DNA from: Acidimicrobiia bacterium
GTDB taxonomy: Bacteria > Actinomycetota > Acidimicrobiia > Spongiisociales > UBA5794
NCBI GenBank assembly: GCA_041608535.1
Contig: JBFISM010000001.1
Span: 30,139 to 94,138 of the forward strand
Reading direction: 5' to 3'
Length of the DNA: 64,000 bases
The position numbers and the translations under genes were made by a program. Shown in pieces: positions 4,105 to 64,000 of the stretch. The notes under the pieces are model-generated. The model was not told the DNA's origin and made no database searches. It was given only the letters and a program-made list of their open reading frames with translations. Numbering within the stretch: position 1 is the stretch's first letter; each line of letters begins with the position of its first letter.

Positions 4105-4108
4105 GATC

Positions 4109-9323: not shown

Positions 9324-9352
9324 GACCCACACTCTGCACTGACTGAAGGTTG

Positions 9353-9383: not shown

Positions 9384-9410
9384 ACCACCCCGTCGGGTAC
9401 ATTTGCGGCG

Positions 9411-39070: not shown

Positions 39071-39098
39071 TTGATCAACATCCCCGTTGCGATATAAT
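39071..39098 (+). promoter_or_regulatory. near-consensus housekeeping-type promoter of flp (TTGATC-N16-TATAAT)
   Basis: -35 TTGATC 39071..39076, -10 TATAAT 39093..39098; predicted TSS ~39105. Confidence 0.55.
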
Positions 39099-39121: not shown

Positions 39122-39316
39122 ATGGGGGAAACTTTCCAGGGCCTCACGGCCTCAGATCCAACGAACCAGCAGCGCCGTCTCTCGGGGGAGGACGGTGAGG
39201 TCCGAGTCGAGTACGCCCTCGTGGCGGCTGTACTCGCTGCGGTGGCAGTCGGCATGCTCACGATCATGGATCGAGGCGTGCAGGACGTCGTGGAGGCCGT
39301 CAAGCTGCTGTTCTAG
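39122..39316 (+). CDS. flp: Flp family type IVb pilin
   Basis: 64 aa; Flp motif G/EVRVEYALVAAVLAAVAVGMLTI (G-x4-EY-ALx hydrophobic helix); SD GGGGGA; monocistronic with promoter and terminator. Confidence 0.75.
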   Translation: MGETFQGLTASDPTNQQRRLSGEDGEVRVEYALVAAVLAAVAVGMLTIMDRGVQDVVEAVKLLF

Positions 39317-40318: not shown

Positions 40319-41323
40319 TCAGCCGGCACCGGCCATTGTGGTCGCCGCAGGGTCGCGATTTGCTGCGAACCAGGCGGCGAGCTCGGCAAAACCATCGTCC
40401 AGACTCACCTCGGGGAACCACCCGAGCGCCTGCTGGGTGCGCCGCTGGTCGAACCAGTGGGCGGTACTGAGCTGTTCGGCCAGGAAAGCCGTCAACGGAG
40501 GCTCTCCGCGACGGCCGGTTCGCAGCCATACCTGCTCGATGGCGGCACCGGCCGCTCGGGCCATCGCAGCAGGTATGCGAATGCTCGGCGGTGGCACACC
40601 TGCGGCGCGCAGGATGCGTGCCACCATCTCGGCGACAGGCCGGGGCTGGGCGTTGCTGACCACGAGCGGCTCACCATCGATGGCCGGGGCGCGGTCGAGC
40701 GCAGCGACGAGTGCGGAGGCAGCGTTGGTGATGTAGGTCGTGTCGATCAACGCCATACCGGAACCCACCGTTGCCAACCGCCCCTGTCGGGCGCGAGCGA
40801 CGATCCTCCCCACGAGCTGCGTGTCACCCGGCCCCCATACCAAGTGAGGCCGGATCACCGCAACCGCCATCGCCTGACCCGCCGCCTCGAGCGCAGACAG
40901 CTCGGCCAGAGCTTTGCTTCGGGCGTAGTGCCCGCGAACGCGATCGGGTGCGGCCGGGGTGGCTGGTGCGCCGACCAGAGCGTCGCCGTGATGGGCCACC
41001 GAAGGAGACGAGACATGCACGAAGCGGCCGGCCCCTGTGATCGCTGCTGCTTCGAGCAGGTTCATCGTGCCGATGACGTTGACCGCCTCGAACTCATCCC
41101 AGCCACCGACCACACCGACGCGAGCGGCCAGGTGGATCACGGCGTCGCAGCCAGTGACGGCATGCCGCACCGCAGCTACGTCGGTGATGTCGCCCAGTGT
41201 CTCGTCGCATCGCAGAGCGCTCGGACGGCGCTGCATGACACGCACATCGTCACCCCGCGCCAGCAGCCGCTCGGCGGTGGTGCGCCCGAGTAGTCCGGTA
41301 GCTCCCGTCACCAGCACCTTCAT
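40319..41323 (-). CDS. oleD: NAD-dependent epimerase/dehydratase (3-beta-HSD-like) reductase, OleD-type
   Basis: Rossmann GATGLLG, YxxxK (YARSK); start ATG 41323 overlaps stop of upstream oleBC (ATGA); ORF-track 198-aa N-extension is artefact. Confidence 0.7.
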   Translation of the reverse strand: MKVLVTGATGLLGRTTAERLLARGDDVRVMQRRPSALRCDETLGDITDVAAVRHAVTGCDAVIHLAARVGVVGGWDEFEAVNVIGTMNLLEAAAITGAGRFVHVSSPSVAHHGDALVGAPATPAAPDRVRGHYARSKALAELSALEAAGQAMAVAVIRPHLVWGPGDTQLVGRIVARARQGRLATVGSGMALIDTTYITNAASALVAALDRAPAIDGEPLVVSNAQPRPVAEMVARILRAAGVPPPSIRIPAAMARAAGAAIEQVWLRTGRRGEPPLTAFLAEQLSTAHWFDQRRTQQALGWFPEVSLDDGFAELAAWFAANRDPAATTMAGAG

Positions 41324-43905
41324 GGCGCTGCACTCCGAAGCCCGGCGCACACCTCGCTCGCCCACGAGGCCAACGCGATGCGATCGATCTTCGAGTTGTG
41401 TCTGATGTCGACCGGCAACTCCGGAACAACGAGAACTGCGGCCACATCGACCTCGGTCTCGCCACGAATCGCATCGGCCAGGTCGAGATCGGCCAGTCCG
41501 CTCACCCGCACCGGCATGGCCGGCTCGACCACGACCGCAACCACTTGGGCACCGGATGGACCCACCCCAACGACCGCAGAGCGCATCACCTCGTCCTGCG
41601 CGTTGATCGTTTGCTCGATGGGCACCGGCGTCACCGGGCCGGCCGCAGTTGTGACGACGTGGGCCAGCCGTCCTTCGATCCACAGCCGCCCGTGAGCGTC
41701 GAGATGCCCAACGTCGCCGGTGCGATGCCAGCCCGGAGGCGACGACGCCGCCAGCTCGGTCGCCCACAGCTGGTCGTAGCCGTCCCGCATGTGCTCGGCC
41801 CGCACACAGACCTCCCCGGTGACATCCGGATCCGTCACCAGCTCGACACCGCCGGTGCCTGGTGCGTCGAGGGGTGCGATCGCCAGGTCGACGCCGTCGA
41901 CGGGTCTGCCGACACACACCCCGCGACCCGCTTCCAGCTGCTCGAGTTCCTCCAGCGACACGTCGGCCACCGGGAGCACTTCCGTCATCCCATAGGGGGT
42001 GTGGATCCGGGCCGCCGGCAACACCCTGCGGACCGACCGCAACAGGCTGCGGTCGACCGGGGCTCCCGCGGACAGCACCAGCCGCACCCGGTGCAAAGCA
42101 GCTCGCTGATCGAGCGTCACTTCGCCGGCCGTGGCCACCACGTTGCGGAGTGCTGCGGGTGATGCGAACACCAGCGTGGCGTCGATCGCACTCACGGCCT
42201 CGGCGAGCTTCGTGGCGGTCAGTGTGGCCGGTGCCGTGATGTCCATGTCGGGCACGATCGAGGCGATACCCATGAGCGGCCCGTAGAGGGCGAAAGGTGC
42301 GAAGGCGGCGACAAGCCGGTCGGAAGGCTGGATCCCGTAGAGCTGCATCAGGGCGTCGCGCTGCGCCTCCACCTGGCGATGCTTGTACCTCACTCCCTTT
42401 GCCGGACCGGTGGCCCCTGAGGTGAACGCAACTGCGGCTATATCGTCGGGTGCGGGAAGCGGCAACGGCCCCACGTCGGCGTCACGCAACCCGGTCAGAC
42501 TGGCGGCACTGCGCAACGTGCGACGCAGCGGAGCCGCCAGCTCGGTGACGCTGATGCGCTCACCCGGCCACCGCATCGCGGTCGCCGCTGCCAGAGCCTT
42601 CACCCCGCCGATGAGGAATCGTGGTGCCGCACTTGCCAGCGCTGACGAGATACCGCGCCCGCCCAGACCAGCATCGACGAAGACGGCTACCCCACCAACG
42701 CGCCACACCGCGTGCAGCGCAGCCGCCAGATCGATGCCCGGCTCCACGAGCAGGGCAACACGGTCACCGGGGCACACCCCGTGGCTGAGCAAACCCGCAG
42801 CGACTTCGGTGACCCTGCGCTCCAGCTCGGCGAAGCTCGCCCGGCGTACCTCGCCATCGGCGATCTCGGCGATGGCCAGGTCCTCGTCCTCGGCCCGCTC
42901 CTGCAACGCAAGCCACACCCGACGTCGCTGACCCGTTGCGGAGTGGGCAGAGGCCGGGATGCCGTGACCCTCGTCCACGGGACGGGTGCGTCGGTCGGGC
43001 AACTCTTCCATCCAGCGCAGCACGACGCCGGCCACGTCTGCGTCCTCGGGTACGAGGTGGCCGGCGCCGGCCAAGCGGTGGGTCACGGCCGCGGGAAACC
43101 GCCGCTGCAGATCGCGGAGATACACGTCGTTGAAGATCGGATCCTTGCCTCCCCACACCAGCAGGGCCGGGACATCGGCGAGCTGTGGTATGAAGGCGGC
43201 GATCTCGGCCAGTGTCGCCGCGGTCGGATGATCGGAACGGAACGGGATGTCCGCCACGAAGTCGGCGATTCCCTTCCGCCGGTGCGCCGCCAGATAGGGC
43301 GACTCATACCCGCGGCGAACGGCGGCAGCGGGTCGAGGCCGTGACAGCGCCGTCGCTCCTCTCACGAACCACGGAGTGCGCTGACACAGCAGCCGCCGCA
43401 GCGGGGCGGCCTGGGCCAGTCGCAGCAGGGTCGCCCCGGGTGTCGGCTCCGGTTGGTCCACGGCGGTGTTCATCAGCACGATGCCCTCGAGCTGCGCCAC
43501 GTGCTGCACTGCCCAGCCAACCGAGACGGGTCCGCCCCAGTCGTGCCCCACCGTGACAACCCGACCTTCGATTCCGAGCGCAGCGGTGAGCGCAGACAGA
43601 TCGTCTATCCGATCGGCCAGCCGCCGCCGCCGGCCGGTTCGTTCCGAGAACCCCATCTCGAGTTGGTCGACGGCAACCACCCGGACGTCGGTCGGTGCCG
43701 CCGCCAGTAGATCGCGCCACAGATACGACCAGGTCGGGTTGCCATGCACACAGAGGATGGTCCGCTCCGGATCGACCGGTGCGGTATCGAGCACGTGCCA
43801 GGTGACTCCGTCTGCAACGGTGACGAGACGTGACCACTCGGGGGCGAGACCCGGGAGATCGTCCGGGGGAAGTTCGGCTGCAGCGGATGAACCGGGTATT
43901 ACCAC
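41320..43905 (-). CDS. oleBC: OleB-OleC fusion: alpha/beta hydrolase (haloalkane-dehalogenase-like) + AMP-dependent synthetase/ligase
   Basis: N-domain HGNPTWSYLWR and GHDWGG nucleophile-elbow; C-domain AMP-binding motif FTSGATGPAKGV, YGMTE; GTG start 43905 overlapping oleA stop; 861 aa. Confidence 0.75.
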   Translation of the reverse strand: MVIPGSSAAAELPPDDLPGLAPEWSRLVTVADGVTWHVLDTAPVDPERTILCVHGNPTWSYLWRDLLAAAPTDVRVVAVDQLEMGFSERTGRRRRLADRIDDLSALTAALGIEGRVVTVGHDWGGPVSVGWAVQHVAQLEGIVLMNTAVDQPEPTPGATLLRLAQAAPLRRLLCQRTPWFVRGATALSRPRPAAAVRRGYESPYLAAHRRKGIADFVADIPFRSDHPTAATLAEIAAFIPQLADVPALLVWGGKDPIFNDVYLRDLQRRFPAAVTHRLAGAGHLVPEDADVAGVVLRWMEELPDRRTRPVDEGHGIPASAHSATGQRRRVWLALQERAEDEDLAIAEIADGEVRRASFAELERRVTEVAAGLLSHGVCPGDRVALLVEPGIDLAAALHAVWRVGGVAVFVDAGLGGRGISSALASAAPRFLIGGVKALAAATAMRWPGERISVTELAAPLRRTLRSAASLTGLRDADVGPLPLPAPDDIAAVAFTSGATGPAKGVRYKHRQVEAQRDALMQLYGIQPSDRLVAAFAPFALYGPLMGIASIVPDMDITAPATLTATKLAEAVSAIDATLVFASPAALRNVVATAGEVTLDQRAALHRVRLVLSAGAPVDRSLLRSVRRVLPAARIHTPYGMTEVLPVADVSLEELEQLEAGRGVCVGRPVDGVDLAIAPLDAPGTGGVELVTDPDVTGEVCVRAEHMRDGYDQLWATELAASSPPGWHRTGDVGHLDAHGRLWIEGRLAHVVTTAAGPVTPVPIEQTINAQDEVMRSAVVGVGPSGAQVVAVVVEPAMPVRVSGLADLDLADAIRGETEVDVAAVLVVPELPVDIRHNSKIDRIALASWASEVCAGLRSAAP

Positions 43906-44918
43906 CGGATCTCGGTTGCGGAGGCGTTGATACCCGATCCGATGCCCAAGCACAGCACGCGATCGCCCGGCTGCAGCGTCTCTTGCGCACCGGCCAGAGT
44001 GATCGGCACCGATGCCGGGCCGACATTCCCCAGGGTCGGGAAGGTGAGGGGCACCTTGTCCATGTCGATGCCGAGGTTCTGGCACATCATGGTGGTGTGC
44101 ACCGCCGAGACCTGATGGATGATGTAGCGATCCATGTCGAGCCAGCCGAAGTCCTCTGCATCGACCCACGCCGTCTTCGCCAGCAGGATGCCGGCATCGA
44201 GCAGGCCACGCGAGTCTGTGCGCATCTGCTCGATCGTCCCCACACACAGCTTGTGATGACTGGTATCGGCCCGAGCGATGCCACCGAGCACCTCGTGTCC
44301 CTCCGGGTGGCGCTCGTATGACCCCAGCACCGCGCCGGCGCCACCCGACCCGAGCGTGAGCGTGGCAAACTCGGCGAACAGATCACCGATCTCGGTCTCG
44401 GGCCTCGCCAGCCGCTGCAACGTGCGCTCCTGGGTGTAGCGGCTGCCCTCCCCATCGACGATCAAGGCGTACTCGATCTGCCCGCTGTCGATCATGTTGC
44501 CTGCGATCTGCATCGCATTCATGAAGCCCAGACATGCATTGGAGAGATCGAAGTTGATGCACGAGCTCGGCAGCTCGAGCGCCTGATGCACACTGACGGA
44601 CGACGAGGGCTCGAGGCGCTCACGGCACACGGATGTGTCGATGAGCAGCCCGATCCGCTCCGGATCGATACCGGCAGCGTCGATGGCCTTGCGACCGGCG
44701 AGTGCCGCCGCATCCACGAAGCTCACGCCCTCGGGCCACCAGCGGCGCTCCTTGATGCCGGCCAGCGACTCCAGCAGCCCGGATTGAGCACCAAGCCGGG
44801 CGTACGTCTCGGCGAGCCGCTCATCGAATTCCTTTGATGTGACCACGATCGGCGCTTCGGCGGCAGCCACCGAGAGCAGTGCGGTGTCGGTGTGGGTGAA
44901 CGTGGCGTTTCCGGTCAT
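43899..44918 (-). CDS. oleA: FabH-like thiolase-superfamily condensing enzyme, OleA-type
   Basis: KAS III fold with active-site Cys in NACLGF, His/Asn region HQVS...GNVGPAS; 339 aa; first gene of oleA-oleBC-oleD operon. Confidence 0.75.
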   Translation of the reverse strand: MTGNATFTHTDTALLSVAAAEAPIVVTSKEFDERLAETYARLGAQSGLLESLAGIKERRWWPEGVSFVDAAALAGRKAIDAAGIDPERIGLLIDTSVCRERLEPSSSVSVHQALELPSSCINFDLSNACLGFMNAMQIAGNMIDSGQIEYALIVDGEGSRYTQERTLQRLARPETEIGDLFAEFATLTLGSGGAGAVLGSYERHPEGHEVLGGIARADTSHHKLCVGTIEQMRTDSRGLLDAGILLAKTAWVDAEDFGWLDMDRYIIHQVSAVHTTMMCQNLGIDMDKVPLTFPTLGNVGPASVPITLAGAQETLQPGDRVLCLGIGSGINASATEIRW

Positions 44919-48804: not shown

Positions 48805-49025
48805 GACCGCTCTCCGGTCAGGACCAAGGTCCCAAGCGAGTGAATGGCAGGGACCCACAGCCCGACGAACAGGCCCAGCTCGCGGTCCACGAAGAACCAC
48901 AGGCCGACCGACAGCAGGAACGATGCGAACGCAGCTGCGAGAAACACCAGCTTGGTGCGATGGAACTGATCGAGCGATGCGATCAGTCCGGTGGTGGTCG
49001 GGTCTGCAACAGGGGGGGCAGACAT
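48801..49025 (-). CDS. small membrane protein (74 aa, 2 TM)
   Basis: RBS GAGAGGAG before ATG 49025; TM helices KLVFLAAAFASFLLSVGLWFFV and LGLFVGLWVPAIHSLGTLVL. Confidence 0.5.
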   Translation of the reverse strand: MSAPPVADPTTTGLIASLDQFHRTKLVFLAAAFASFLLSVGLWFFVDRELGLFVGLWVPAIHSLGTLVLTGERS

Positions 49026-49128
49026 GTTTCTCCTCTCGACGATTCATCTCGTCTACGAGGAAGCGGCCCGTTGTGGATGACGACGGCGGGGAGTGGCATC
49101 TCTCAGAGGACCTGCGATGCGGTGCGGG

Positions 49129-49395
49129 TCAGCGGTCGCCGACCGCCTGGCAACCGCAGGCACGCGACGGCGGCGTCCCGTCGAGCTCGGCCGCCGCCGA
49201 CGCCAGACCGAGCAGACGAAGTGCAGTGGCCAGAGGCGTAGCGTCCTCATCGGCACGAAATGCCCAGGGTTTGGATCGCCAGCGCTCCAGCTCAACGGCA
49301 AGCGGGCCATCGATGGCCACACCGCAACCGGCTACCAGCCGGGCCATGTCGTCGGTCCACAGGAACATCCGCCACCCCCCGGCGCTCACTACCAC
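49129..49395 (-). CDS. hypothetical protein (88 aa)
   Basis: GTG-start ORF in flp2 upstream region; weak, no motif. Confidence 0.2.
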   Translation of the reverse strand: MVVSAGGWRMFLWTDDMARLVAGCGVAIDGPLAVELERWRSKPWAFRADEDATPLATALRLLGLASAAAELDGTPPSRACGCQAVGDR

Positions 49396-49481
49396 TCTTG
49401 AGAACGTACCGCACGTGTCAACCCCCCCTGGAGCGGTCCTATCGCGACCGACCGCACGAGCGATTTCATCGAAAGTGATGA

Positions 49482-49491
49482 TGACGCGTCA
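49482..49491. promoter_or_regulatory. 10-bp perfect palindrome TGACGCGTCA 43 nt upstream of second flp gene
   Basis: seen in sequence; overlaps second inverted repeat GACGCG-N8-CGCGTC. Confidence 0.3.
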
Positions 49492-49534
49492 CCGCCCGCG
49501 TCTTAGCTTCATGATGAAAGGACGGATACCAGCC

Positions 49535-49681
49535 ATGTCAGTTCCCGACACCCACGGCGAACGCGGCGCCACCATGGTGGAGTACGCCATCATGCTTGCG
49601 CTCATCGCAACCGTATCCATGGTCGTGATCACCACGATCGGCCAGGATGTGCTCGGCGCCTTCGCCTCCGCGAAGTGGTGA
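49535..49681 (+). CDS. flp: Flp family type IVb pilin (48 aa)
   Basis: canonical Flp prepilin motif ERG/ATMVEYAIMLALIATVSMVVITTIG; too short to appear alone in ORF track (it is the C-terminus of artefactual ORF 48515..49681). Confidence 0.75.
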   Translation: MSVPDTHGERGATMVEYAIMLALIATVSMVVITTIGQDVLGAFASAKW

Positions 49682-49731
49682 GCTGAGGCTCCCCCACCAG
49701 GCCTGTCTGACCTTCAGCCAACCCTCAGCTC
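49680..49731 (+). terminator. inverted repeat GAGCTGAGG ... CCTCAGCTC downstream of flp2 (long loop)
   Basis: 9-bp perfect arms separated by ~34 nt, starting at flp2 stop; weak terminator candidate. Confidence 0.25.
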
Positions 49732-49797
49732 CATGACGCACATTGGCGACACGAGCGCAGCGTGCGTCTGGCCGCAGGTGCGAGGGAGGTCGGGATC

Positions 49798-49980
49798 GTG
49801 GATACTTTTGTCGTTCGCATCTACCCGAGCACCGGTTCCAACCGTCCCGGGCGCATCGAACACGTGACGTCGGGCTCTGTTCTCTATTTCCACAGTCTCG
49901 ATGAGCTGCCTCGCGCCGTCGAGGCGGCGTTGCAGGCATCGGGTAGCTCCCTTCAGACCGGCGCGATGAAGGACCGCTGA
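49798..49980 (+). CDS. small hypothetical protein (60 aa) between flp2 and STAND regulator
   Basis: RBS GAGGGAGG 8 nt before GTG 49798; MDTFVVRIYPSTGSNRPGRIEHVTSGSVLYFHSLDELPRAVEAALQA... balanced composition, locally lower GC. Confidence 0.45.
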   Translation: MDTFVVRIYPSTGSNRPGRIEHVTSGSVLYFHSLDELPRAVEAALQASGSSLQTGAMKDR

Positions 49981-50007
49981 ACGAAGAGCGACGCGGGACG
50001 GATAGCA

Positions 50008-53000
50008 TTGCTGCCGTCTCCGATGAGCCATCCAATCGCAACGCCGTTGACCATCGTGGCGAGACCCCGCCTCGAGGAGCTGCACCGCCTTCTCGGCGAG
50101 CGACGGCTCTGCCTGATCTCTGCCGGTGCCGGCTACGGCAAGACGACCCTGCTCGGGGTATGGCGCGAGCAGGCGCCGACGGGCTTTGTGACGTGCACAG
50201 AGGGGCACGGCAACCTCGGTGTGTTCGCCACCACGGTGACGAACGCGCTGCGCGCCTGGATTCCCGGTCTGCAACCGCGAACGACAGGGGTCGAGTCGAT
50301 GAGCGGCCCGGCGGTGGCGTCCGAGCTGATCGCCGCAGCAGCGCCGCTGATGCAACGTCCGATCCGTCTCTTCTTCGACGATGTCGATGAACTTCGCACG
50401 GGTGAGTCGGCTCGCTTTCTCCAATCTCTGGTGCTGCAGGCTCCGCAGAGCCTCGGGATCGTGCTGGCAGGCCGTAGCGAACCTCCTGTACGAATCGCCA
50501 GACTCCGCGGTCGCGGCCAGCTGCTCGAGCTGACGGCTGCCGACCTTCGCTTCACCTTCGACGAGACGACTCGGTTCGTTGCCGCCACGGCTCCGGAGGT
50601 GGCCGGCTACGTCGACGAGATCCATGCAACGACCGGGGGCTGGCCCGCGGCGGTCCGGCTCACCGTCGAGGCGCTCCGCGGCAGCCCAGTCGACGATCGA
50701 CTCCGCGTGCTGGAACGGGCGCGCCGACCCGGGGGTACGTTGTTCGCCTATCTGGCCGATGAGGTCATCGACAGCGAGCCTCCTCCGGCCAGAGAGATGC
50801 TGCGCACGCTGGCGGCGATCGGGGCGGCTCCCGATGCGCTCGTGCTCGACGTGTGTGGAGGAGAAGAGACTCTGCTGGCGGGACTGCAGCGGCGCGGATT
50901 GTGTGTGGCCAGCGGACCAGACATCAGCGTGCCGCCACTCGTGGCGGACTTTCTCGCCTCAGACGCTCCCCTCGAGGCGACAGAGCGGTTGGGTGCGCTC
51001 GAACGTGCCGCCCACTGGTTCTGCGATCACGGAATGCACCGCCGGGCGCTGGAGCTCGCCACCCGACGGGGGGCAACCGAGCTGGCCGCTGCCATCTGTC
51101 TCGAGCACGGGGAGCAGATCGCCGACTCGGGAGGAGCCGCAGCTGTGCTGGCAGCGCTGCGGACGGTCGACGAGAAAGACCTCACACCGGCGCTCTTGCG
51201 ACTGAAAGCCAACGTGCTGCACACCACGGGCGATTGGGATGCGGCCCTGGCGATCTATGAGGGATTGGACGGCGGCGCCGCCAGCATCCCGGCCGACCTG
51301 GCCTGGCGCATGGGTCTGATCCACCTCCTGCGAGGAGATCCCCACACTGCGACTGAGGTGTACCGGCGTGCGGACATCACGGCCCAGGACGCCGATACCG
51401 CCATCCTGCTCGGCTGGTGGGCGTCGGCCGCCTGGATCACTGCGGAGACCGCTCACTGCCGTTCGTTGGCAAATGAATCATTGGCAACAGCTCAGCGGGT
51501 TGGCGATGACCGCGCCCTGGCGGTGGCGCACACGGTGCTGGCGATGGTTGCAGCTGTGGACGGAGACCGCCACGGCAACGAGGCGCACTACATCGCTGCT
51601 CTGGATCACGCCAAACGGGCCGACGACGTCTTGCAGCAGGTGCGAATCCATGTCAATCGCGCCAGCCACCATCTGGAGGAGGGGCACTATCTCGAATCGA
51701 TCGCGGAGAGCGACCAGGCGCTGACGCTCGCCGAGCTCGGCGACATCGTGCCATTCAAGGCAATGGCGCTACTCAATCGCGGTCAAGCGCTGTCGCGGCT
51801 GGGGCGGTTGGAGGCGGCAGACGCCGATTTCGCCGCAGCCCACAGCGAGTGGGAACGAACCCGTTCCCGGCATGTCGCCTATGCATTGAATGCATTTGGC
51901 GAGAGTCGAACCGCACGGGGAGTCCGGTCGCTGGCGCGATCCGCTCACGAGCAGGCGCTTGCCATCGCGGAGGCGAACTCAGACACACAGGCGCTCATCC
52001 CGGCGCTCGTCGGTCTGGCCAAGGTCACCATCGACGACGATCCGGCGACGGCGCGGCTGCTGGCGAAACGAGCCGCCGACCACGGCCCGAGCCTCGGAAC
52101 GGCCGCGGCGCTGCTTGCCCTGGGGTGGGCCGAGCTGGAGCTGGGCAACACCGAGGCGGCGATCGACAACGCTCGCCGTGCCGGTGACATCGCCAGAGCA
52201 CGGCGGGACCGCGCCGCTACCGCAGAAGCGCTGGAATTGGAAGCGTTTGCTGCGCCCGATGAGGCCAAGCCCCTGCTCGACGAGGCGCTGGAGTTGTGGG
52301 GCAGCCTCGACGACCCCCTCGGGCACGCCAAGTCGCGTCTCGCCCGGTGTCGGCTGCTCCACGCTGACATCGAGGAGCTCGATGAGCTGGCGGCTCTGTT
52401 CGGCAGGCTCGGTGCCCGACATCTCGCCGCCGAGACGAGGGCGATGGTCGAGCGTCTCGGTGCGGAACGACGCAACGCCGTCGTCATCGAAACCCTCGGG
52501 GGCTTCCGCGTTGTCACCGGCGGCGAGCCGGTTCCCGCTTCGGCGTGGCAGTCGAGGAAGGCAAGGGATTTGTGCAAGCTGCTGGTGACCCGGCGGGGCA
52601 AACCGGTCCATCGGGAGGTGCTGCTCGAAGAGCTGTGGCCCGGCGAGGACGGGCAGAAAACGGCGAACCGACTCTCTGTCGCCCTGTCGACGCTCCGCAA
52701 CGTCTTCGACCCCGAGAGGACTCACGATCCCGACCACTACATCGCAGCAGACAAGACATCCGTCGCGCTCGTGCTCGAAGCACTCGAGATCGACGTGGAG
52801 CGATTCATCTCCGCCGCTCGTGACATCCTGGAACACCCGGACGCATCCGAGGCGCGGCTGGAACGCATCGAAGCCGCCTATCGCGGAGATTTCCTCGAGG
52901 AGGATCCGTACGCCGACTGGGCGGTATCGCTGCGGGAAGAGGCGCGAAGCCTGTATCTGCGGCTGGCCCGCAGGCTTGCCGAGCTCACCAGCGAGCGTGG

Positions 53001-53229
53001 CGACCACGATGCCGCAGCCCGCTATCACCTCCGGGTTTTGGAACGTGACCCGTACGACGAGCCTGCCCATCTCGGATTGGTGAGCGCCATGGCCGCCACG
53101 GGCCGGCATGGGGAGGCGCGCCGTCTCTACCGAGCGTATTGCGAGCGGATGGCCGATCTCGACGTCGACCCGCATCCATTCCCCGCCGAGGGACACGCCG
53201 CCACCCAGCCGGCATTCAGGAAAACCTAA
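50008..53229 (+). CDS. large STAND NTPase-TPR regulator with C-terminal SARP (OmpR-type wHTH + BTAD) domain
   Basis: Walker A LISAGAGYGKTTLL near N-terminus; central Ala/Leu-rich TPR-like repeats; C-terminus (about 52480..53229) has wHTH FRVVTGGEPV...LCKLLVTRRGKPVHREVLLEELWP and BTAD EAAYRGDFLEEDPYADWAVSLREEARSLYLRLARRLAEL...ARRLYRAYCERMADLDVDP; 1073 aa. Confidence 0.8.
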   Translation: MLPSPMSHPIATPLTIVARPRLEELHRLLGERRLCLISAGAGYGKTTLLGVWREQAPTGFVTCTEGHGNLGVFATTVTNALRAWIPGLQPRTTGVESMSGPAVASELIAAAAPLMQRPIRLFFDDVDELRTGESARFLQSLVLQAPQSLGIVLAGRSEPPVRIARLRGRGQLLELTAADLRFTFDETTRFVAATAPEVAGYVDEIHATTGGWPAAVRLTVEALRGSPVDDRLRVLERARRPGGTLFAYLADEVIDSEPPPAREMLRTLAAIGAAPDALVLDVCGGEETLLAGLQRRGLCVASGPDISVPPLVADFLASDAPLEATERLGALERAAHWFCDHGMHRRALELATRRGATELAAAICLEHGEQIADSGGAAAVLAALRTVDEKDLTPALLRLKANVLHTTGDWDAALAIYEGLDGGAASIPADLAWRMGLIHLLRGDPHTATEVYRRADITAQDADTAILLGWWASAAWITAETAHCRSLANESLATAQRVGDDRALAVAHTVLAMVAAVDGDRHGNEAHYIAALDHAKRADDVLQQVRIHVNRASHHLEEGHYLESIAESDQALTLAELGDIVPFKAMALLNRGQALSRLGRLEAADADFAAAHSEWERTRSRHVAYALNAFGESRTARGVRSLARSAHEQALAIAEANSDTQALIPALVGLAKVTIDDDPATARLLAKRAADHGPSLGTAAALLALGWAELELGNTEAAIDNARRAGDIARARRDRAATAEALELEAFAAPDEAKPLLDEALELWGSLDDPLGHAKSRLARCRLLHADIEELDELAALFGRLGARHLAAETRAMVERLGAERRNAVVIETLGGFRVVTGGEPVPASAWQSRKARDLCKLLVTRRGKPVHREVLLEELWPGEDGQKTANRLSVALSTLRNVFDPERTHDPDHYIAADKTSVALVLEALEIDVERFISAARDILEHPDASEARLERIEAAYRGDFLEEDPYADWAVSLREEARSLYLRLARRLAELTSERGDHDAAARYHLRVLERDPYDEPAHLGLVSAMAATGRHGEARRLYRAYCERMADLDVDPHPFPAEGHAATQPAFRKT

Positions 53230-53433
53230 GACCCAGATGTGAGGATGCGGGGACAGCGAGGACGGGCCCCGGCGCGGTTGCTTCCGTATAGAGGGGGTTC
53301 GAGATTCTCGGTAGTGGGAGCCGTGTCGATGGACATGAGGGGATCTGTCGTCACGTGAGGGGAGGTCGAGCCGGCGCCCGCCATCGCTGTCTTCCTGTCT
53401 CTTCGCCATTCGCCCTGCGGCGATCCCCCATCC

Positions 53434-57549: not shown

Positions 57550-58701
57550 TCAGCCGACGAGCTGCACCGTCTCGGAGTATCCGATGTCGTCGACCGCACC
57601 CGAGCCGTTGAGCTTCACCACCATCAAATCCGCTTCCACGGGCGAGGGGAGAAACCGCTGGGCGACCATACCGTCCCCGGCAAGCGTGAGCTGCACCTCC
57701 GCAACGAGGTTGCCGTCTCGGTACAGCCACACAAACGCATCCTCCTCCACATCGACGAGGGTCACATCTGTGACGGTCACCAGACCCGTGTCTCCGAAAT
57801 CCTCGAAGTCGAGCACCAGGGTGCAGTCCGTCGTGATGTCATCGGCGTCCTCGGCATAGCTGGGTGCATCGTTGGCGCTCGCACCCGTGGGGCACGGTCC
57901 CCCGAAATCGTCCGGATCGGATGCGTCACCGTCCTCAGAGATGATGAGCACGCCTCCCTGGCCGGGGAGGAACAGATCGTTGTCTCCACCCGAGCAGTTG
58001 GACGCCGGCCCTCCGCCACAGGTGGCATCGAACACCATCGGACCGAAGGCCGTGTTCGATCCAATGGCCACCTCGCCGCTGATGTGGTCGCCGCTGATGC
58101 CATATCCGGCAGAGACCTCACTCGGCTGATCACCAGCGGGGATTCCCTCGAAATCGATCACGGCGCGACGTTTCAGCGAGATGGCGGTCGCCGACACGTC
58201 ACTGGTTTCGAAGCCGAGGACACGAGCGAAGAGGTGTTCCACCGGGTTGCCATATGCCGCGGAGCGGCGGGTGGTCACTTGCACGGCATTGAGGGGAAGA
58301 CCACTGGCCACGAATGTTCTCGTCGACGTGTCCCAGTTCCCCACCACGACGTCGGGCGCTTTGGTCAGGGGACCAGCTCCGTCATCGTTGCGATCGGCGT
58401 AGTCGATGGCGATCACCTCGGCCACCGTTGCAATTGGCAGCCCGCGCGCTGCGGCCGTCGAAGCAGCGTCTGCCGCCGTCTGCAGCTCGGTCCGCACCAC
58501 ATACAGGTGCCCGACATCAACCGCCAGTGCCGCAAAGCCGAAGATCACGAAGAGGAGCAGGCCCACGAAGATCGCCGTTGTCCCCGATTCCATTTCGCCT
58601 GATGCGACACGCCCCCGATGGAAGGAGCCGGTGGGCACCTTTGTCGAAAGAGGTGTGGCGTCGTCCGACGACCGCACCGGCAGCAGCTGCGTCTCCCCCA
58701 T
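57550..58701 (-). CDS. TadE/TadG-like pilus assembly protein with large C-terminal extension (paralog 1)
   Basis: Tad N-terminal domain TTAIFVGLLLFVIFGFAALAVDVGHLYVVRTELQTAADAAS; start ATG 58701 with GGGGGACGGGG SD; C-terminal domain with DATCGGGPASNCSGGD motif. Confidence 0.7.
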   Translation of the reverse strand: MGETQLLPVRSSDDATPLSTKVPTGSFHRGRVASGEMESGTTAIFVGLLLFVIFGFAALAVDVGHLYVVRTELQTAADAASTAAARGLPIATVAEVIAIDYADRNDDGAGPLTKAPDVVVGNWDTSTRTFVASGLPLNAVQVTTRRSAAYGNPVEHLFARVLGFETSDVSATAISLKRRAVIDFEGIPAGDQPSEVSAGYGISGDHISGEVAIGSNTAFGPMVFDATCGGGPASNCSGGDNDLFLPGQGGVLIISEDGDASDPDDFGGPCPTGASANDAPSYAEDADDITTDCTLVLDFEDFGDTGLVTVTDVTLVDVEEDAFVWLYRDGNLVAEVQLTLAGDGMVAQRFLPSPVEADLMVVKLNGSGAVDDIGYSETVQLVG

Positions 58702-58996
58702 GGTCCCCGTCCCCCAATGGCAGCAAATGAATGGTTGCGCCTCGCAGGGACCACGTAGCTGTGAGGTGCTGTATAGGTCTGAAGACGCATCATAGAGGCC
58801 AATGCGATGTACGACCGACGGGAGAGCGTTCACGCTGGGTTTAGCGGTGTGTCCGTCGTACGAGCGAGGTCAGAAAGACGCTTGGGACGGAAGAGATTCA
58901 CTTCCAACAAGGCACTGGGTCCGGCGTGTACCGGACCCAGTGGCCAGGGAGGTGACATGCGGCCGTGCGGTGACGCCCTCGTCTACCGCTACTGCC

Positions 58997-60097
58997 TCAC
59001 CCGACGAGGGAGACCGTCTCGGAATATCCAATGTCGTCGATGGCGCCCGATCCGTTCAGCTTGACCACCATGATGTCGCCGTCGACCGGCGTGGGCAGCA
59101 ACCGCTTGGCCGCCATGCCGTCACCCGCCAGGGTCAGTTGCACTTCGGCCACGAGGTTGCCGTTCCGGTAGATCCAGACAAAGGCGTCTTCCTCGACGTC
59201 GACAAGCGTGACATCCGTGATCGTGACAACTCCCTCGCCGAAGTTCCGGAAGTCGAGCACCAGCGTGCACAGCGTGGTCACGTCGCTGGGATTGGCGACC
59301 CATGCCGGAGCATCGTTGGCGGCAGCCCCTGTCGGGCAGGGCGTCGGTCCCGCATAGTCGTCCGGGTCGCTGGAATCGCCATCCTCAGAGATGATCAGCA
59401 CCCCGCCCTGGGTCGGGACGAAGAGGTCGCTGTCACCGCCTGTGCAGTTGGAGGCCGGCCCGCCGCCGCAGGTTGCGTCGAACACCATGGGACCGAATCC
59501 CGTGTTGGACGAGATGTCGACGGTACCGGGAATCGGGTCGCCGGAGATCCCGTATCCGCTCGATACCGAATAGGGCTGATCACCTGCCGGAATACCTTCG
59601 AAGTCGATGACGGCGTTCTGCCTCAGAGCAATCGATGCAGCTCGCACATCGGTGGTCGGGTTGCCCAGGATCCCGGCGAAGAGGTTGTCCACCGGATTGC
59701 CGTATGCGACCGAACGGTTCGTGATCACCTGCACCGCGTTGAAGGGGAGCCCGTTCTCGGTGTATGTGCGGGTGGACGAATCCCAGTAGCCCACCGAGAT
59801 GTCAGCGGCGTCCGTGATGTTGCCGTTTCCGAACGAGTTCTCGTTGTTGGCGTAATCGAGTGCGATCGCCTCGGCGGCGATCTCGAGCGGGAGCCCCCGA
59901 GCCCCTGCGGTCGCGGCAGCGTCGGCCGCCGTCTGCAGCTCGGCTCGCACCATGTAGATCTGGCCGACGTCGACCGCCAAGGCGGCAAACCCAAAGATCA
60001 CGGTGAGCAGGAGACCGACGAAGATAGCCGACACTCCACTCTCCGAGCGGAGACGCTCGTCCCCCGTTGCCGGCTCCACCACGTCCAGCTCGTTCAT
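58997..60097 (-). CDS. TadE/TadG-like pilus assembly protein with large C-terminal extension (paralog 2)
   Basis: SAIFVGLLLTVIFGFAALAVDVGQIYMVRAELQTAADAAA; 70-85 percent aa identity to paralog 1 along whole length; SD GGGGG 7 nt before ATG 60097. Confidence 0.7.
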   Translation of the reverse strand: MNELDVVEPATGDERLRSESGVSAIFVGLLLTVIFGFAALAVDVGQIYMVRAELQTAADAAATAGARGLPLEIAAEAIALDYANNENSFGNGNITDAADISVGYWDSSTRTYTENGLPFNAVQVITNRSVAYGNPVDNLFAGILGNPTTDVRAASIALRQNAVIDFEGIPAGDQPYSVSSGYGISGDPIPGTVDISSNTGFGPMVFDATCGGGPASNCTGGDSDLFVPTQGGVLIISEDGDSSDPDDYAGPTPCPTGAAANDAPAWVANPSDVTTLCTLVLDFRNFGEGVVTITDVTLVDVEEDAFVWIYRNGNLVAEVQLTLAGDGMAAKRLLPTPVDGDIMVVKLNGSGAIDDIGYSETVSLVG

Positions 60098-60494
60098 GTT
60101 GCACCCCCTGGCCGGGAGGTCCCATCCCCGAGGTCCGGTTCGTCACCGGAGCGGTCTTCGGATTCCCCCGCTTGGCTCGTATTCCCCTTTGCACACCATC
60201 GGACAGCCGAGATGAGCCGCCCGAGTCTCGATGGGACAGAACAGAAGGTCGTTGGCCCGCAACCGCGGCCGCGTGGGCGCAGCGATCAGCGCGACGTGAT
60301 TCCCCCAAATTCCATTCCCCAGCTCGTCGATTCGCCGAACCGGCGATTGCGGCCGTACGCCGCGTGCTCGACTCGCCTTGTGTGTTCGTAGGTTCCGTCA
60401 GTTGTGAGTTGTCGTGGCCCCGCCGGCCTCCTGCACGAAACGGCGTCGGTGCGGTTCCACGTCTATACGACACATGGCCGTGCCGCTTCTTACA

Positions 60495-61478
60495 TCATTC
60501 GGGGAACATGACCTCGTCGATGAGGCTTTCCTCGACGTGACCGCCCTTGGGCTCGAACCTGTAGTGCGCAAAGTCCTTCTCGAACTCGAGATCGAGACCC
60601 TCGGGTCCGTGGCGGTACTTCTCGAAGCTCAGCACGGTCCGCCGTTTGTGCTCCTCTGCCTTCAAGACGTCGAAGGAGGAGTGCAGCTTGGACACGGCGG
60701 TGAACTTGCTGTTGAGCAGGAGCAAGAGATCGGCTTCGTACCCGACGCCGGATGCGCCGTTGAGGTGGTGCATCCGCAGCCGGCGGATGTTGAGCCCGGA
60801 CGCATCCGAAGCGACGATGGCGAGCACGGCGACATCGGCGCTGAGTGCGATCGACTTGAGCCCCTGAGCGATCTTGGCGACGCGGCTCAGGTCCCCCGTG
60901 GCCGGGTGCGGCACTTTCTGGAGGAAGTCCACGATGAGCAGGCTGCCGGGGCCGGCGTGCTGCGCCGTCTCGGTCAGCGCCTGCAGGTCGGTACCGGTAC
61001 GGCTGGCGTTGATGAACCACAGCCGCTCTCCGTAGTCGCTGATCCTGCTGTACGCGGCACGGAGCAACAGGTTCCGGCTCAACTCGTCCTCGAGCGATGC
61101 CTCACCCAGAGCGATGCTGCGGATCGCTGCCCGCGTGGGACCGGAGGCGCCGGGCGCTCCCTCCACGAGGTCGCCCACCTCGAGCAACAGCAACCGGCTG
61201 AGCAGCGTCAGGTGATCGTGGTCGTAACACGCATAGACGACGTTCGTGCCCTGCTCTGCGGCGTTACGGGCCCATTGCATCGACATCACGGTCTTTCCCT
61301 GGCCGGGAGCGCCACCGAGGATGGTCAAGTCCCTGGGTCGCAGTCCACCTTCGAGCACCGTGTCGAGCGGCTCGAATCCGGTCGGAACGGTATGCACCCC
61401 GCGCGCCTCCTCGTCGACCGACGCCAGGACGGCACTCGCCGACCGGAACTGTGGAGCGTTGGGGTGGACTTCGAGCAT
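60495..61478 (-). CDS. RecA-superfamily (KaiC/DnaB-C/RadA-like) P-loop ATPase encoded 19 nt downstream of tadC
   Basis: Walker A GGAPGQGKTVMS, Walker B LLIVDFLQKV, RecA-like fold features; ATG 61478 with AAAGG SD immediately after tadC stop (61498); alternative GTG 61514 would overlap tadC. Confidence 0.7.
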   Translation of the reverse strand: MLEVHPNAPQFRSASAVLASVDEEARGVHTVPTGFEPLDTVLEGGLRPRDLTILGGAPGQGKTVMSMQWARNAAEQGTNVVYACYDHDHLTLLSRLLLLEVGDLVEGAPGASGPTRAAIRSIALGEASLEDELSRNLLLRAAYSRISDYGERLWFINASRTGTDLQALTETAQHAGPGSLLIVDFLQKVPHPATGDLSRVAKIAQGLKSIALSADVAVLAIVASDASGLNIRRLRMHHLNGASGVGYEADLLLLLNSKFTAVSKLHSSFDVLKAEEHKRRTVLSFEKYRHGPEGLDLEFEKDFAHYRFEPKGGHVEESLIDEVMFPE

Positions 61479-61497
61479 GGGGGTGCGACCTTTCGGC

Positions 61498-62430
61498 TCA
61501 GGGGACGAGGGCACCGCCGAGATCGCGGAAGATCCGGATCACGGCAGGACCGAGCAGGATGATGAACATGGCGGGGAAGATGCACATGGCGAGCGGGAAG
61601 ATGAGCTTGACCGGCAGCTTCATCGCCTGCTCTTCGGCACGCTGGAAGCGCTTGTCCCTGAGCTCGTCGGATTGCACCCGCAGCACGCCGGCCACCGGAA
61701 TGCCGTACTGCTCGGATTGCACGACAGCGAGGATGAAGCTGTCGAGATCCGACACCGCGGTACGGCTGGACAGATTGCGGAGAGCCTGCGGGCGAGGGAT
61801 ACCGAGCTGGATCTCGCGCAGCGTGCGCTGCAGCTCGTCGGCAAAAGGTCCCTCACCGGAGCGGGCCACTCTCGCTAGTGCAGCCTCGAAACCCAGCCCG
61901 GCGTCCACCGACATCCGGATCTGGTCGAGGGTGTCTGGAAGTTCGAGCTGGATGCTGTGCTGACGTGCCTTACCCTTTTGTGCGATCAACAGATCGGGCA
62001 GAAAGAAACCCAACGCTGTTACACCGAGCACAATCAGGGGCTGCAGTCGTGGTACCGACCCAAAGGGTCCCAACAGCCCGAAGGCGAGGCCAGCAGCACC
62101 CAGCCCGAATTTGGTGACCAGCATCCGCTCCACCGATGTGGTGTCGGCGTTGCCGGCCAAAACGAGATTCTTCCGCAGGGAGTCCGTCCACCCCGCCGGA
62201 GTGAGGCTCCGCAGGCGCACGCCCATGGCGCGCAGCATCGGGACACCGACACGCTTGCCGATGCCCTGCTGGAGCACCAGCGACCGGGCGTCGGTGGTTT
62301 CCGGCTTGCCCAGGATGCGCTCCCGGCTGGCGGCGCTTGCCGCGCTCACGCGGGTCGAAGCGACGGACCAGTACAAGACCGGGAGCGAGACGGAGACTGC
62401 GACCGCCGCAAGGATGATCTGGATTGGCAT
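61498..62430 (-). CDS. tadC: type II secretion system F family protein (TadC-like)
   Basis: 310 aa, N-terminal TM, cytoplasmic T2SSF domain, C-terminal TM pair; 9 nt after upstream tadB-like gene. Confidence 0.75.
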   Translation of the reverse strand: MPIQIILAAVAVSVSLPVLYWSVASTRVSAASAASRERILGKPETTDARSLVLQQGIGKRVGVPMLRAMGVRLRSLTPAGWTDSLRKNLVLAGNADTTSVERMLVTKFGLGAAGLAFGLLGPFGSVPRLQPLIVLGVTALGFFLPDLLIAQKGKARQHSIQLELPDTLDQIRMSVDAGLGFEAALARVARSGEGPFADELQRTLREIQLGIPRPQALRNLSSRTAVSDLDSFILAVVQSEQYGIPVAGVLRVQSDELRDKRFQRAEEQAMKLPVKLIFPLAMCIFPAMFIILLGPAVIRIFRDLGGALVP

Positions 62431-62439
62431 GGCGTCCTC

Positions 62440-64000
62440 CTAGTACTCCAACTTGGTGATTTTTCTCATCCACAGGACTCCGACCACCATGCCGAGCAAA
62501 CCGGCGGCGACCATGATCTGGCCCATGGTCGACTCGAACAGCTCGAGGAGGTAGTCCGGGTTGATCATCATGAGCGCTCCCACCAAGAACACGGGAAGCG
62601 ATCCCAGAATCACCCCCGAGAAGCGGCCCTCGGCGCTGAGCGACTTGACCCGACGCCGGATACGGTTCCGGTCACGGACGGTGTCGGTGACCGAGTCGAG
62701 GATCTCGCCGAGATCGCCACCGACCTCACGATGAATCTCGATCGCCTCGACCACCCACCGGAAGTCCTCCGATTGGAGGCGATGTGCCATGGCCTTCAGC
62801 GCCTCGTCCGAGTCCCGTCCGAGATGCGTCTCCAGCTTCACCCGGCGGAACTCCTCCCCTGCGGGATCGGCGATCTCGTTGGCGACAGTGTCGACGGCTT
62901 GCATCAGACCAAAACCGGAGCGGAGGCTGCCGGCCATGAGCTGAAGCGCATCTGGGAGCTGGGCGGCGAAGGACGAACGGCGTTTCGACGCTTTCTGGCT
63001 GAGGAAGGCGTAGATACCCAGGACCGTGAAGACGGCAAGTCCGAGCCCGGCGAGCCCGCTGATGGTGGCGAAGCCCACCGCCAAGGCGCCGAGCATGGCG
63101 GCGCCGGTGAGCACCACGAACTCTGCGGGACGCCACGACAGACCGGCCGCTTCAAGCTTGGTGTTGATGACACCGCGCCGCTCGCCCTTCTCGAGGCTGC
63201 GATCGGCGAACAACGTGGCTTGCTCGGCGAGCGACGACAGGGTCTTGCCCTTCGTCTCGCCGAACTTCTTCGACACCGCCTTGGCGACGAGCTGCACGTT
63301 CCTCGGCTGGCCGATACCGGAGAGGAACACGATCGTCGCCAGCGAGACGAACATCATGCCGAGTCCCGTGTAGAGCAGCCCCGGTCGGTCGAACAACCCG
63401 AGCTGCACTTCGAAGCCCTCACGCAACGCCGGAGCCACCGTGGCCACGGGGGCGACGACCGTGGTGGGGGTCACCGAAACCACGCTTGTCGGGGGTACCG
63501 TCTCGGTCACCGGAGGGGGTTCCGGGTATTCCACGATCCCGACGAGCGACGTCGACTGACCGTTGGCGCTGGCGACCACCTCGAGCTCCGTTGCGTCGAA
63601 CGACGCCGACTCGAACGTCAGCGAGAATTGGTTGACGATGGCCGTGGCCAGCTCATTGAGAACGCCCGTGAGCGCTTCCGGGTCGTCGGCGGACACCACC
63701 CGGCTCTCCCCGGCATCGGGGTGAGCTGCTTCGGCGAGCGCTCGCATCGCCACCGGATCGTTCTCCGTTCCTTTCAGCTCGATGGCGTGATAGGCCACAT
63801 CCGTCACCACGAGCCGCTCCTCCAGCTCGATGAGCGTGAGTGCGCTGGCGGTATCGGCGCCGTCGGAGAGCAACACCACGGTATTGCGGGTGTCCTCGAG
63901 CCCGGCGAACTGATCGAGCCCGAGCGCCAGACCGTCGTACAACGCCGTGTTGCCTCCGGTAGAGATGCCCCGGATGGCCTCGGCCAGCTCGGCCGCATCG
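62440..64000 (-). CDS. tadB: VWA domain - TadB-like (T2SSF) fusion protein, 5' end beyond window
   Basis: C-terminal 310 aa T2SSF membrane domain; upstream in same frame, open to window edge: ...GGNTALYDGLALGLDQFAGLEDTRNTVVLLSDGADT (VWA C-terminal half) then Thr/Val/Pro linker; ORF-track start 63942 is a TTG in a frame with no stop up to base 64000. Confidence 0.65.
   Translation of the reverse strand, partial: DAAELAEAIRGISTGGNTALYDGLALGLDQFAGLEDTRNTVVLLSDGADTASALTLIELEERLVVTDVAYHAIELKGTENDPVAMRALAEAAHPDAGESRVVSADDPEALTGVLNELATAIVNQFSLTFESASFDATELEVVASANGQSTSLVGIVEYPEPPPVTETVPPTSVVSVTPTTVVAPVATVAPALREGFEVQLGLFDRPGLLYTGLGMMFVSLATIVFLSGIGQPRNVQLVAKAVSKKFGETKGKTLSSLAEQATLFADRSLEKGERRGVINTKLEAAGLSWRPAEFVVLTGAAMLGALAVGFATISGLAGLGLAVFTVLGIYAFLSQKASKRRSSFAAQLPDALQLMAGSLRSGFGLMQAVDTVANEIADPAGEEFRRVKLETHLGRDSDEALKAMAHRLQSEDFRWVVEAIEIHREVGGDLGEILDSVTDTVRDRNRIRRRVKSLSAEGRFSGVILGSLPVFLVGALMMINPDYLLELFESTMGQIMVAAGLLGMVVGVLWMRKITKLEY

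Follow-up and report, generated by a model that had tools for sequence, protein, structure and literature searches.

The stretch of DNA analysed here (the window) comprises 64,000 nucleotides of contig JBFISM010000001.1 from an Acidimicrobiia bacterium, and between positions 49,482 and 53,229 it carries three genes on the plus strand: a short pilin gene, a small open reading frame (ORF) and the gene of a giant transcriptional regulator. The pilin gene, flp2 (49535-49681), encodes a Flp-type prepilin of 48 amino acids (aa) with a predicted cleavage site G/ATMVEY. It is located 116 nt upstream of the small ORF (49798-49980), which starts with a GTG codon preceded by GGGAGG at a gap of 8 nt and encodes a 60-aa protein (VDTFVVRIYPSTGSNRPGRIEHVTSGSVLYFHSLDELP...) belonging to a large unannotated family. 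The small ORF in turn ends 45 nt before the regulator, a MalT-type STAND protein with a C-terminal SARP module. The regulator ORF opens at a TTG codon (50008-53229, 1073 aa), and the 100%-identical database protein P0001 begins at an ATG (50023-53229, 1068 aa). All three genes are real, and the initial annotation was right in placing a 60-aa ORF and a 1073-aa protein behind the pilin gene on the same strand. It also proposed that the regulator controls pilin or Tad pilus expression; the comparisons described below point to the small gene as the probable target, reached through a conserved repeat.

Domain architecture of the regulator

From the profile matches and the predicted model, it is clear that the regulator is a MalT-clade STAND ATPase with a tetratricopeptide-repeat (TPR) sensor, in which a complete SARP module replaces the LuxR helix-turn-helix (HTH) of MalT. 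In the 1073-aa numbering used throughout, the MalT-type nucleotide-binding oligomerization domain (NOD; 50011-51237, plus strand as for all domains) contains the Walker A motif GAGYGKTT (50125-50148, aa 40-47) and is matched by the NCBIfam MalT model PRK04841 over aa 2-494 (E 8e-38); Pfam gives weak AAA_16/AAA_22 matches at the N-terminus. An all-helical TPR-like sensor follows (51238-52470), with matches to TPR_12 (aa 585-656, Pfam), TPR_1, TPR_8 and TPR_2. The C-terminus consists of an OmpR-type winged helix-turn-helix (wHTH; 52480-52791; Trans_reg_C at aa 849-908, 30.3 bits against a cutoff of 26.2) and a BTAD domain (52792-53178; Pfam BTAD at aa 929-1057, 45.2 bits against 22.1). No NB-ARC match was found at E <= 0.1, and no GerE or LuxR HTH was matched in the protein.

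Comparison with solved structures gave the same picture. The single sequence matched the MalT NOD (PDB 8BOB) with an E of 2.6e-20, and a profile of 20 family members matched it with an E of 1.9e-56. The C-terminal 240 positions of this profile matched EmbR (2FEZ residues 11-246, E 2.4e-8), and its C-terminal part also matched AfsR (8HVR residues 39-273, E 1.1e-5). The AlphaFold2 model, with a predicted local distance difference test score (pLDDT) of 87.8, shows an alpha/beta NOD followed by unbroken helical hairpins (aa 394-821), then strands, three helices and a beta-hairpin wing (aa 825-928, the wHTH) and finally an all-helical domain; its best fold matches are the STAND-TPR protein 6MFV and the MalT NOD 8BOB. 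Among 20 homologues, Gly42, Gly44 and Lys45 of Walker A and Asp125 of Walker B are nearly invariant and Asp124 is invariant, while in the wHTH the segment NRLSVALSTLR is almost invariant, with Arg888, Val891 and Arg897 unchanged throughout. The order NTPase-TPR-wHTH-BTAD that had been read from the letters is therefore borne out by Pfam, NCBIfam and structure-profile matches alike, with both C-terminal domains above their cutoffs.

As to its class, the regulator has all the parts of a STAND NTPase in one polypeptide, namely a P-loop NOD, a helical/winged-helix arm, a repeat sensor and an effector. It carries the wHTH directly followed by BTAD that defines SARPs, in the last ~250 residues and not at the N-terminus, and it lacks the NB-ARC-type NOD between SARP and TPR of the AfsR-like large SARPs. 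With MalT and the LAL regulators it shares a NOD of MalT type, in which Walker A and Walker B are both intact, but not the LuxR/GerE HTH, and since its score of 130 bits on the MalT equivalog model is far under the curated cutoff of 537, it is not a MalT orthologue. Its relatives carry the Pfam domain PF25873 (WHD_MalT). The published SARP classes (small, medium, large and SARP-LAL) all have an N-terminal SARP module (PMC10972967), so the initial description of a reversed SARP architecture holds as far as the position of the module is concerned. It does not hold as an inversion of AfsR: because the NOD is not of NB-ARC type, the regulator is better described as a MalT with a swapped output domain. 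One family member, P0070 (1254 aa), has an extra adenylate/guanylate cyclase domain (PF00211), presumably N-terminal, a layout that recalls the cyclase-ATPase-LuxR regulators of mycobacteria.

The architecture had been thought unusual, but it is common in the databases. A protein search with the regulator returned more than 300 full-length clusters at E <= 1e-10; the 120 clusters listed are mostly 950-1300 aa long, with 83-100% query coverage (nearly all >=95%) and 36-45% identity. Scanning one genome per species, we found that at least 433 species-representative genomes encode a full-length relative, the hosts including Acidimicrobiia, Gaiella, Kribbella, Actinokineospora, Solirubrobacterales and Dormibacterota. 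The relatives bear automatic names only, such as 'BTAD domain-containing putative transcriptional regulator' at NCBI and 'MalT / SARP family' at JGI, and a literature search for MalT-like proteins ending in a SARP module or BTAD domain found no relevant paper. IniR (Rv0339c) was considered as a characterised member and rejected, its DNA-binding domain being of the LuxR type. The NOD-TPR-SARP family is thus widespread and unstudied, with a layout absent among characterised regulators. Some loci carry tandem paralogues, since clustering placed 95 regulator-family ORFs in 81 loci; in L016, L034, L043 and L053, a second ORF of ~1110-1180 aa (ORFs at ~1300-4850) lies ~1.2 kb upstream of the regulator on the same strand.

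The small gene and its repeat box

To describe the surroundings of the family we used a sample of 80 related loci with 6-kb flanks. A jackhmmer search seeded with the 60-aa ORF of the window placed a homologue of the small protein next to the regulator in 47 of these 80 loci, and all-against-all clustering of neighbouring ORFs (81 loci) gave no other conserved neighbour. The small ORF is the only conserved neighbour of the regulator family. Most of its homologues lie 27-130 bp downstream of the regulator on the same strand; the small ORF is upstream in the window, L011, L037, L051, L040 and L054, convergent in some others and divergent in one, so that the pairing holds in every orientation. 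It also holds from the other side: starting from different small proteins, a regulator homologue adjoined in all four contexts sampled.

The small proteins share the core M-[ED]-T-F-V-V-R-V-W, followed by a loop of 10-15 residues and then L-R-G-V-V-E-H-V-x-S-G-xxxx-F-x-S-xx-E-L-xx-F-L. At 90% identity the family counts 257 clusters, and at 50% identity 2756 representatives; almost every protein is 57-110 aa long, all are named 'hypothetical' and Pfam matches none of them. The AlphaFold2 model of the window protein shows three strands and a helix (pLDDT 78). A further observation concerns the reading frame: in both the window (49978-50025) and L081 (6996-7043), the locus of the closest relative, the small ORF and the regulator share a frame, with a single TGA and 14 sense codons between them, and this shared frame has been kept although the intervening sequence has diverged. 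Read-through of the stop would fuse the small ORF to the regulator. We rejected such a fusion, as L011 and L040 differ, L037 has two stops and no fused proteins were found among the best 150 family representatives.

The intergenic sequence upstream of the small ORFs contains a recurring CTTAAGG...CTTAAGG pattern, a 22-bp direct repeat of 11-bp period with the consensus CCTTAAGCCAACCTTAAGG. Unsupervised expectation maximization on 48 distinct small-ORF upstream regions returned CGCCTTAAGCCAACCTTAAGGC (17.5 bits), in which CTTAAG again occurs twice at an 11-bp period. A strong box at a fixed distance to the ORF is present in about 40 of these 48 regions, where it typically starts 44-57 nt before codon 2. 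The box is followed by 8-9 nt, a CAnnAT-type -10-like hexamer, 6-7 nt and the start codon, and in 39 of 49 cases its end lies 19-22 nt from the first ATG or GTG. This spacing implies a leaderless mRNA for the small gene. As an independent test set we took the regulator genes of loci in which no small ORF had been found, which had no part in training the matrix: a site of at least 15 bits lies between -40 and +60 nt relative to the stop codon in 24 of these 29 genes, on or within a few bases of the stop, as compared with 1 of 1345 control windows. The box is a real element of these loci, specific in sequence and in position, and its conservation across the family fits the near invariance, in the wHTH, of the recognition-helix segment.

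As a rule the box is found at the regulator stop codon or shortly before the small gene, and it travels with the small gene wherever this lies elsewhere than downstream of the regulator. In Kribbella and one Streptomyces-labelled genome, the TFVVRVW protein is replaced by a leaderless gene behind the box for a Peptidase_M23 protein of 116-137 aa (MAAPVHN...; L022, L026, L030, L032, L033, L039, L041, L042, L044, L046, L052 and L058-L061, at ~9176-9620). In L002, L004, L019, L020 and L067, metagenome-assembled genomes among them, the leaderless gene behind the box encodes another family of 71-74 aa (MKNFAAS.../MHIFAA...EGNHLTLWE), which has no Pfam match. The box thus follows its target gene even where that gene differs, which supports an adjacent target. 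Upstream of the regulator start codons (32 loci), 11- and 22-bp dyads were not enriched over other spacings. The box is tied to the small or target gene and not to the regulator's own promoter.

The window has two such boxes. Box 1 (GACCTTCAGCCAACCCTCAGCT, 49709-49730, plus strand), a candidate site for the SARP module, consists of the units TTCAGCC and CTCAGCT starting 11 bp apart; it starts 89 nt and ends 68 nt before the GTG of the small ORF. Box 2 (GGCATTCAGGAAAACCTAAGAC, 53211-53232, plus strand) overlaps the TAA stop of the regulator (53227-53229), the usual position in the family. In a position weight matrix (PWM) scan of both strands of the 64 kb, Box 2 scored best (17.1 bits) and Box 1 second (16.7), the third match reaching 10.6; Box 1 is also the only perfect match to TTCAGC-N6-TCAGC. 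Box 2 is conserved in L081 as TTCAGCTCACGCTGAGACC, and the first unit of Box 1 is kept in L081 and in L092, a second copy of the same type. A putative -10 hexamer, CACATT (49739-49744, plus strand), was read 8 bp past the second unit of Box 1 and 20 bp past TTCAGC; its counterpart in L081 is CACTGT, two nt further along. According to the target rule known for SARPs, direct repeats follow each other at a spacing of 11 or 22 bp, and ~8 bp separate the 3' repeat from the -10 (PMC10936776, PMC11301090). AfsR binds a 22-bp pair of 11-bp repeats over a poor -35 element, TTCAGC, with a 20-bp spacer to the -10 CACTGT, and activates afsS, the small gene immediately downstream of afsR (PMC10936776, PMC11301090, bioRxiv 10.64898/2026.09.02.748808). 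The geometry of Box 1 and CACATT matches both the SARP rule and the afsS promoter. By presence and position, the family's sites are those of a SARP promoter (repeats of 11-bp period with a CAnnAT hexamer 8-9 nt on), and binding by the regulator is predicted.

The second unit of Box 1 is also the 3' arm of a perfect 9-bp inverted repeat, GAGCTGAGG...CCTCAGCTC, with a 34-nt loop (49680-49731, plus strand), which starts at the flp2 stop codon and is not evident in L081. Past Box 2, between the regulator and a convergent aminotransferase gene, lies a non-coding stretch of 200 nt (53233-53433, plus strand; 10210-10450 in L081). Here the two genomes are 73% identical and differ by indels of non-triplet length. 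The stretch may represent a small RNA under the control of Box 2 or what is left of a lost small gene. A consensus fold of the two available sequences was uninformative, and an Rfam search for structured RNA past Box 2 gave no significant match, the one chance-level match (E 0.34) falling at 49475-49548.

Candidate targets of the regulator

We put the probability that the regulator controls the adjacent small gene through the conserved repeat, with no sign of pilin control, at roughly 0.6, judging from sequence comparison. By analogy with MalT and AfsR, the TPR region would sense a ligand, and ligand and ATP would release autoinhibition and drive oligomerization. Two SARP modules would then sit side by side on the 22-bp repeat, with its CTTAAG-like units 11 bp apart over the -35 position, and, the repeat lying 8-9 bp upstream of a CAnnAT-type -10, the bound modules would recruit RNA polymerase, as the same analogy suggests. 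Comparative genomics points to the repeat as the promoter element of the gene paired with the regulator, mostly one for a leaderless 60-70-aa protein just downstream. In the window the order is the other way round: the small gene comes before the regulator and has its own Box 1 and a predicted leader of ~47 nt. As the regulator follows the small ORF at a distance of 45 nt, the Box 1 promoter would also transcribe the regulator, and activation at Box 1 may in this way produce positive feedback through co-transcription. Box 2 is a second copy, still at the usual stop-codon position.

Several points weigh against control of the small gene through the box. Another protein that binds tandem repeats could occupy the box. 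The regulator stop is just 27-50 bp from the small gene in most relatives, and read-through may co-transcribe the two. Also, the small protein could be a stoichiometric partner of the regulator besides being its target, and its fold has no significant match in the PDB. As for the window itself, L081 preserves the second unit of Box 1 only poorly, and no ORF follows Box 2 in either genome. Shuffled 64-kb windows gave a mean maximum of 14.5 bits and a highest of 19.1; Box 1 and Box 2 are convincing because of their position and their conservation in L081, not by score alone.

The possibility of a partner leads to a first rival, in which the small protein acts mainly on the regulator, as an anti-activator or as a co-sensor on the TPR, and the box only ensures co-expression. 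MalK, MalY and Aes act on MalT as such partners, TPR domains commonly bind peptides or small proteins, and both the 27-50 bp gap and the survival of the pairing through four orientations would be expected of partners; this role is also compatible with the small gene being a target. It is, however, an adjacent target that better fits the unrelated genes found behind the box in Kribbella (Peptidase_M23) and in other lineages (a different small protein), and none of the best 150 family representatives joins the small protein to the regulator. We therefore regard a mainly partner-like role as possible but rather doubtful. It is far less probable that the repeat at the 3' end is a by-product of the stop context, CTTAAG containing TAA, or that it acts at the level of the transcript, for example as a terminator or a processing site. 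The stop codon does often lie inside a repeat unit, and the Kribbella site is partly palindromic and scores on both strands. Yet the box moves away from the stop with an upstream, convergent or divergent small gene (Box 1, L037, L051, L101), and its 11-bp period and fixed distances to the -10-like hexamer and the start codon are features of a promoter.

The remaining rival is that of the initial annotation, that the regulator serves specifically to activate flp2 and/or the genes of the Tad pilus. In its favour, flp2 lies on the same strand just ahead of the small ORF, in an order kept in a relative with 72% identity, a partial Tad locus starts 4.3 kb downstream of the regulator, and SARPs are often cluster-situated activators (PMC10972967). 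Against it, the 6-kb flanks of the 80 related loci contained no flp gene by phmmer with flp2 or by Flp-motif search, and the clustering of the 81 loci gave no tad genes; these are the very findings that the initial annotation had named as contrary to its proposal. Orthologues of the same architecture, which it had suggested looking for, are thus many, but the order flp-small ORF-regulator is kept only in the closest relative, L081 (72% identity), and its second copy L092. A metagenome scan for closer relatives returned just another copy of the L081 type, and in L011 (54% identical) the small ORF again lies upstream of the regulator but a glycosidase-like gene stands in the place of flp. Furthermore, flp2 lies upstream of Box 1 and not downstream of it, and its upstream region has conserved -35/-10-like blocks of its own. 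No box was found upstream of flp2 by repeat search, pattern search or PWM scan, and in the 64-kb scan all matches near flp2, flp1 (the other Flp-like gene of the window) and the tad genes stayed below 10 bits, a match of 9.3 bits upstream of flp1 being its ribosome-binding palindrome. The SARP-type repeats that the initial annotation had suggested seeking upstream of flp and tad genes were missing there, and present upstream of the 60-aa ORF and at the regulator stop. We see no indication that flp2 is a target of the regulator; the case for pilin or Tad control draws on adjacency in two related genomes, and we consider such control unlikely.

The pilin gene is nevertheless genuine. Its product, MSVPDTHGERG/ATMVEYAIMLALIATVSMVVITTIGQDVLGAFASAKW (48 aa), scores 32.9 bits on Pfam Flp_Fap against a gathering cutoff of 32.2, and it has the G/XXXXEY motif, reading ERG/ATMVEYAIMLALIATV, and the hydrophobic helix of Flp/Fap pilins, in agreement with its first description as a canonical 48-aa Flp with G/ATMVEYAIM. 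The L081 orthologue is also 48 aa long, in the same position, and the 22 synonymous against 8 non-synonymous codon differences between the two show that flp2 is a real gene under purifying selection. The short prepilin encoded by flp2 resembles Flp1 of Aggregatibacter and PilA of Caulobacter in its G/XXXXEY processing motif and its hydrophobic helix, and TadB/C-like and TadE/G-like genes likewise occur in the window, at 57.5-64 kb. It differs from these pilins in that 8 kb separate its gene from the tad genes, which are on the opposite strand. We conclude that it is a Flp-type pilin gene that probably serves this Tad locus, and a lineage-specific neighbour of the regulator with a promoter region of its own.

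Upstream of flp2, alignment of the window with L081 revealed a conserved GTGATGATGA block, which could supply a -35-like ATGACG (49481-49486, plus strand), and 17-18 nt further on a putative -10 hexamer TAGCTT (49504-49509, plus strand; TAGGTT in L081). With low confidence, these blocks may be flp2's own promoter; a consensus promoter and terminator scan of 49000-50100 gave no matches. The 10-bp palindrome TGACGCGTCA (49482-49491), 43 nt from the flp2 ATG, which had drawn attention at the outset, is indeed present, overlapping the putative -35/spacer region. As an operator it was rejected, since the window has 104 perfect 10-bp palindromes against ~100 in shuffled sequence and this one is not kept in L081.

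The remaining features concern the wider window. A first Flp-like gene, flp1 (39122-39316, plus strand; 64 aa, ...GEDG/EVRVEYALVAAVLAAV...), was matched by phmmer with flp2 at E 0.011 and has no Pfam match at E 1e-3. It has a near-consensus promoter (TTGATC-16-TATAAT, 39071-39098) and a palindromic ribosome-binding region (CCCCCTAAGGGGG). The partial Tad locus (57550-63942, minus strand; Pfam Tad, Tad_C, DnaB_C/ATPase and T2SSF), opposite in strand to the regulator, consists of two TadE/G-like genes (Tad and Tad_C) and two T2SSF genes (TadB/C-like), with a KaiC/DnaB_C-like ATPase gene between them (60495-61514) that is not a standard Tad component. No prepilin peptidase (TadV) or TadA ATPase was seen inside the 64-kb window; TadA would lie beyond its end. 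Upstream of the flp2 region, a gene for an abhydrolase/AMP-binding fusion and a KASIII-like gene are found in both the window (41320-44918, minus strand) and L081 (620-4200, minus strand), and the synteny of the two loci reaches beyond flp2, the small ORF and the regulator. The other annotated genes of the window belong to unrelated metabolism and transport.

Relation to known regulators

The closest analogy is AfsR/afsS of Streptomyces coelicolor. Both regulators combine a STAND ATPase, a TPR sensor and a SARP module; in both systems a 22-bp pair of 11-bp repeats, overlapping a poor -35 that reads TTCAGC in afsS as in Box 1, lies ~8 bp from a weak -10, with a 20-bp spacer between the -35 and -10 hexamers; and in both the direct target is the adjoining gene of a small protein, which here is predicted from the sequence. 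The two differ in the order of domains, SARP-NOD-TPR in AfsR and NOD-TPR-SARP here, and in the NOD, which is of MalT type here. The small protein lacks the repeat motifs of AfsS and belongs to a different family. Also, unlike in AfsR/afsS, the mRNA is here usually predicted to be leaderless and the box usually overlaps the regulator stop codon.

MalT of E. coli and the LAL regulators, including mycobacterial IniR, have a homologous NOD and the same order of NOD, helical-repeat sensor and C-terminal DNA-binding domain, but their effector is a LuxR/GerE HTH whereas that of the regulator is a SARP module. Instead of MalT boxes, the sites expected here are direct repeats in tandem at the -35 position. 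The SARP-LALs (PimR, FilR, SanG) likewise join a SARP module to a LAL-like ATPase half, but with the SARP module N-terminal and the LAL-like part C-terminal, the reverse of the present order, in which a long TPR region is added. EmbR of Mycobacterium tuberculosis, the best solved-structure match to the wHTH and BTAD, has an N-terminal SARP module followed by FHA, without the NOD or TPR sensor of the regulator.

Taken together, the NOD-TPR-SARP regulator, the CTTAAG-N5-CTTAAG box and the small gene may make up a so far undescribed signalling cassette that is complete in itself. It would be a counterpart of AfsR/afsS that was put together independently, with a 60-70-aa beta3-alpha protein as its output effector. 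In the window lineage, rearrangement of this cassette would have brought the small gene ahead of the regulator in an autoregulatory operon and left a relic box at the regulator stop, with an additional pilin gene alongside; we give this fuller picture about an even chance. The cassette would be widespread in non-Streptomyces Actinomycetota (Acidimicrobiia, Gaiellales, Kribbella and others) and in Dormibacterota. To our knowledge, SARPs and MalT-like STAND proteins, which are two of the main classes of large regulators in actinobacteria, are known almost exclusively from work on Streptomyces, E. coli and mycobacteria. The present family unites a MalT-type switch with a SARP output and is abundant in poorly studied soil lineages. 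From the conserved box and the small gene next to it, both a binding site and a direct target can be predicted for each member, and the family is a natural case for comparing how activation depends on where the SARP module stands relative to the NOD.

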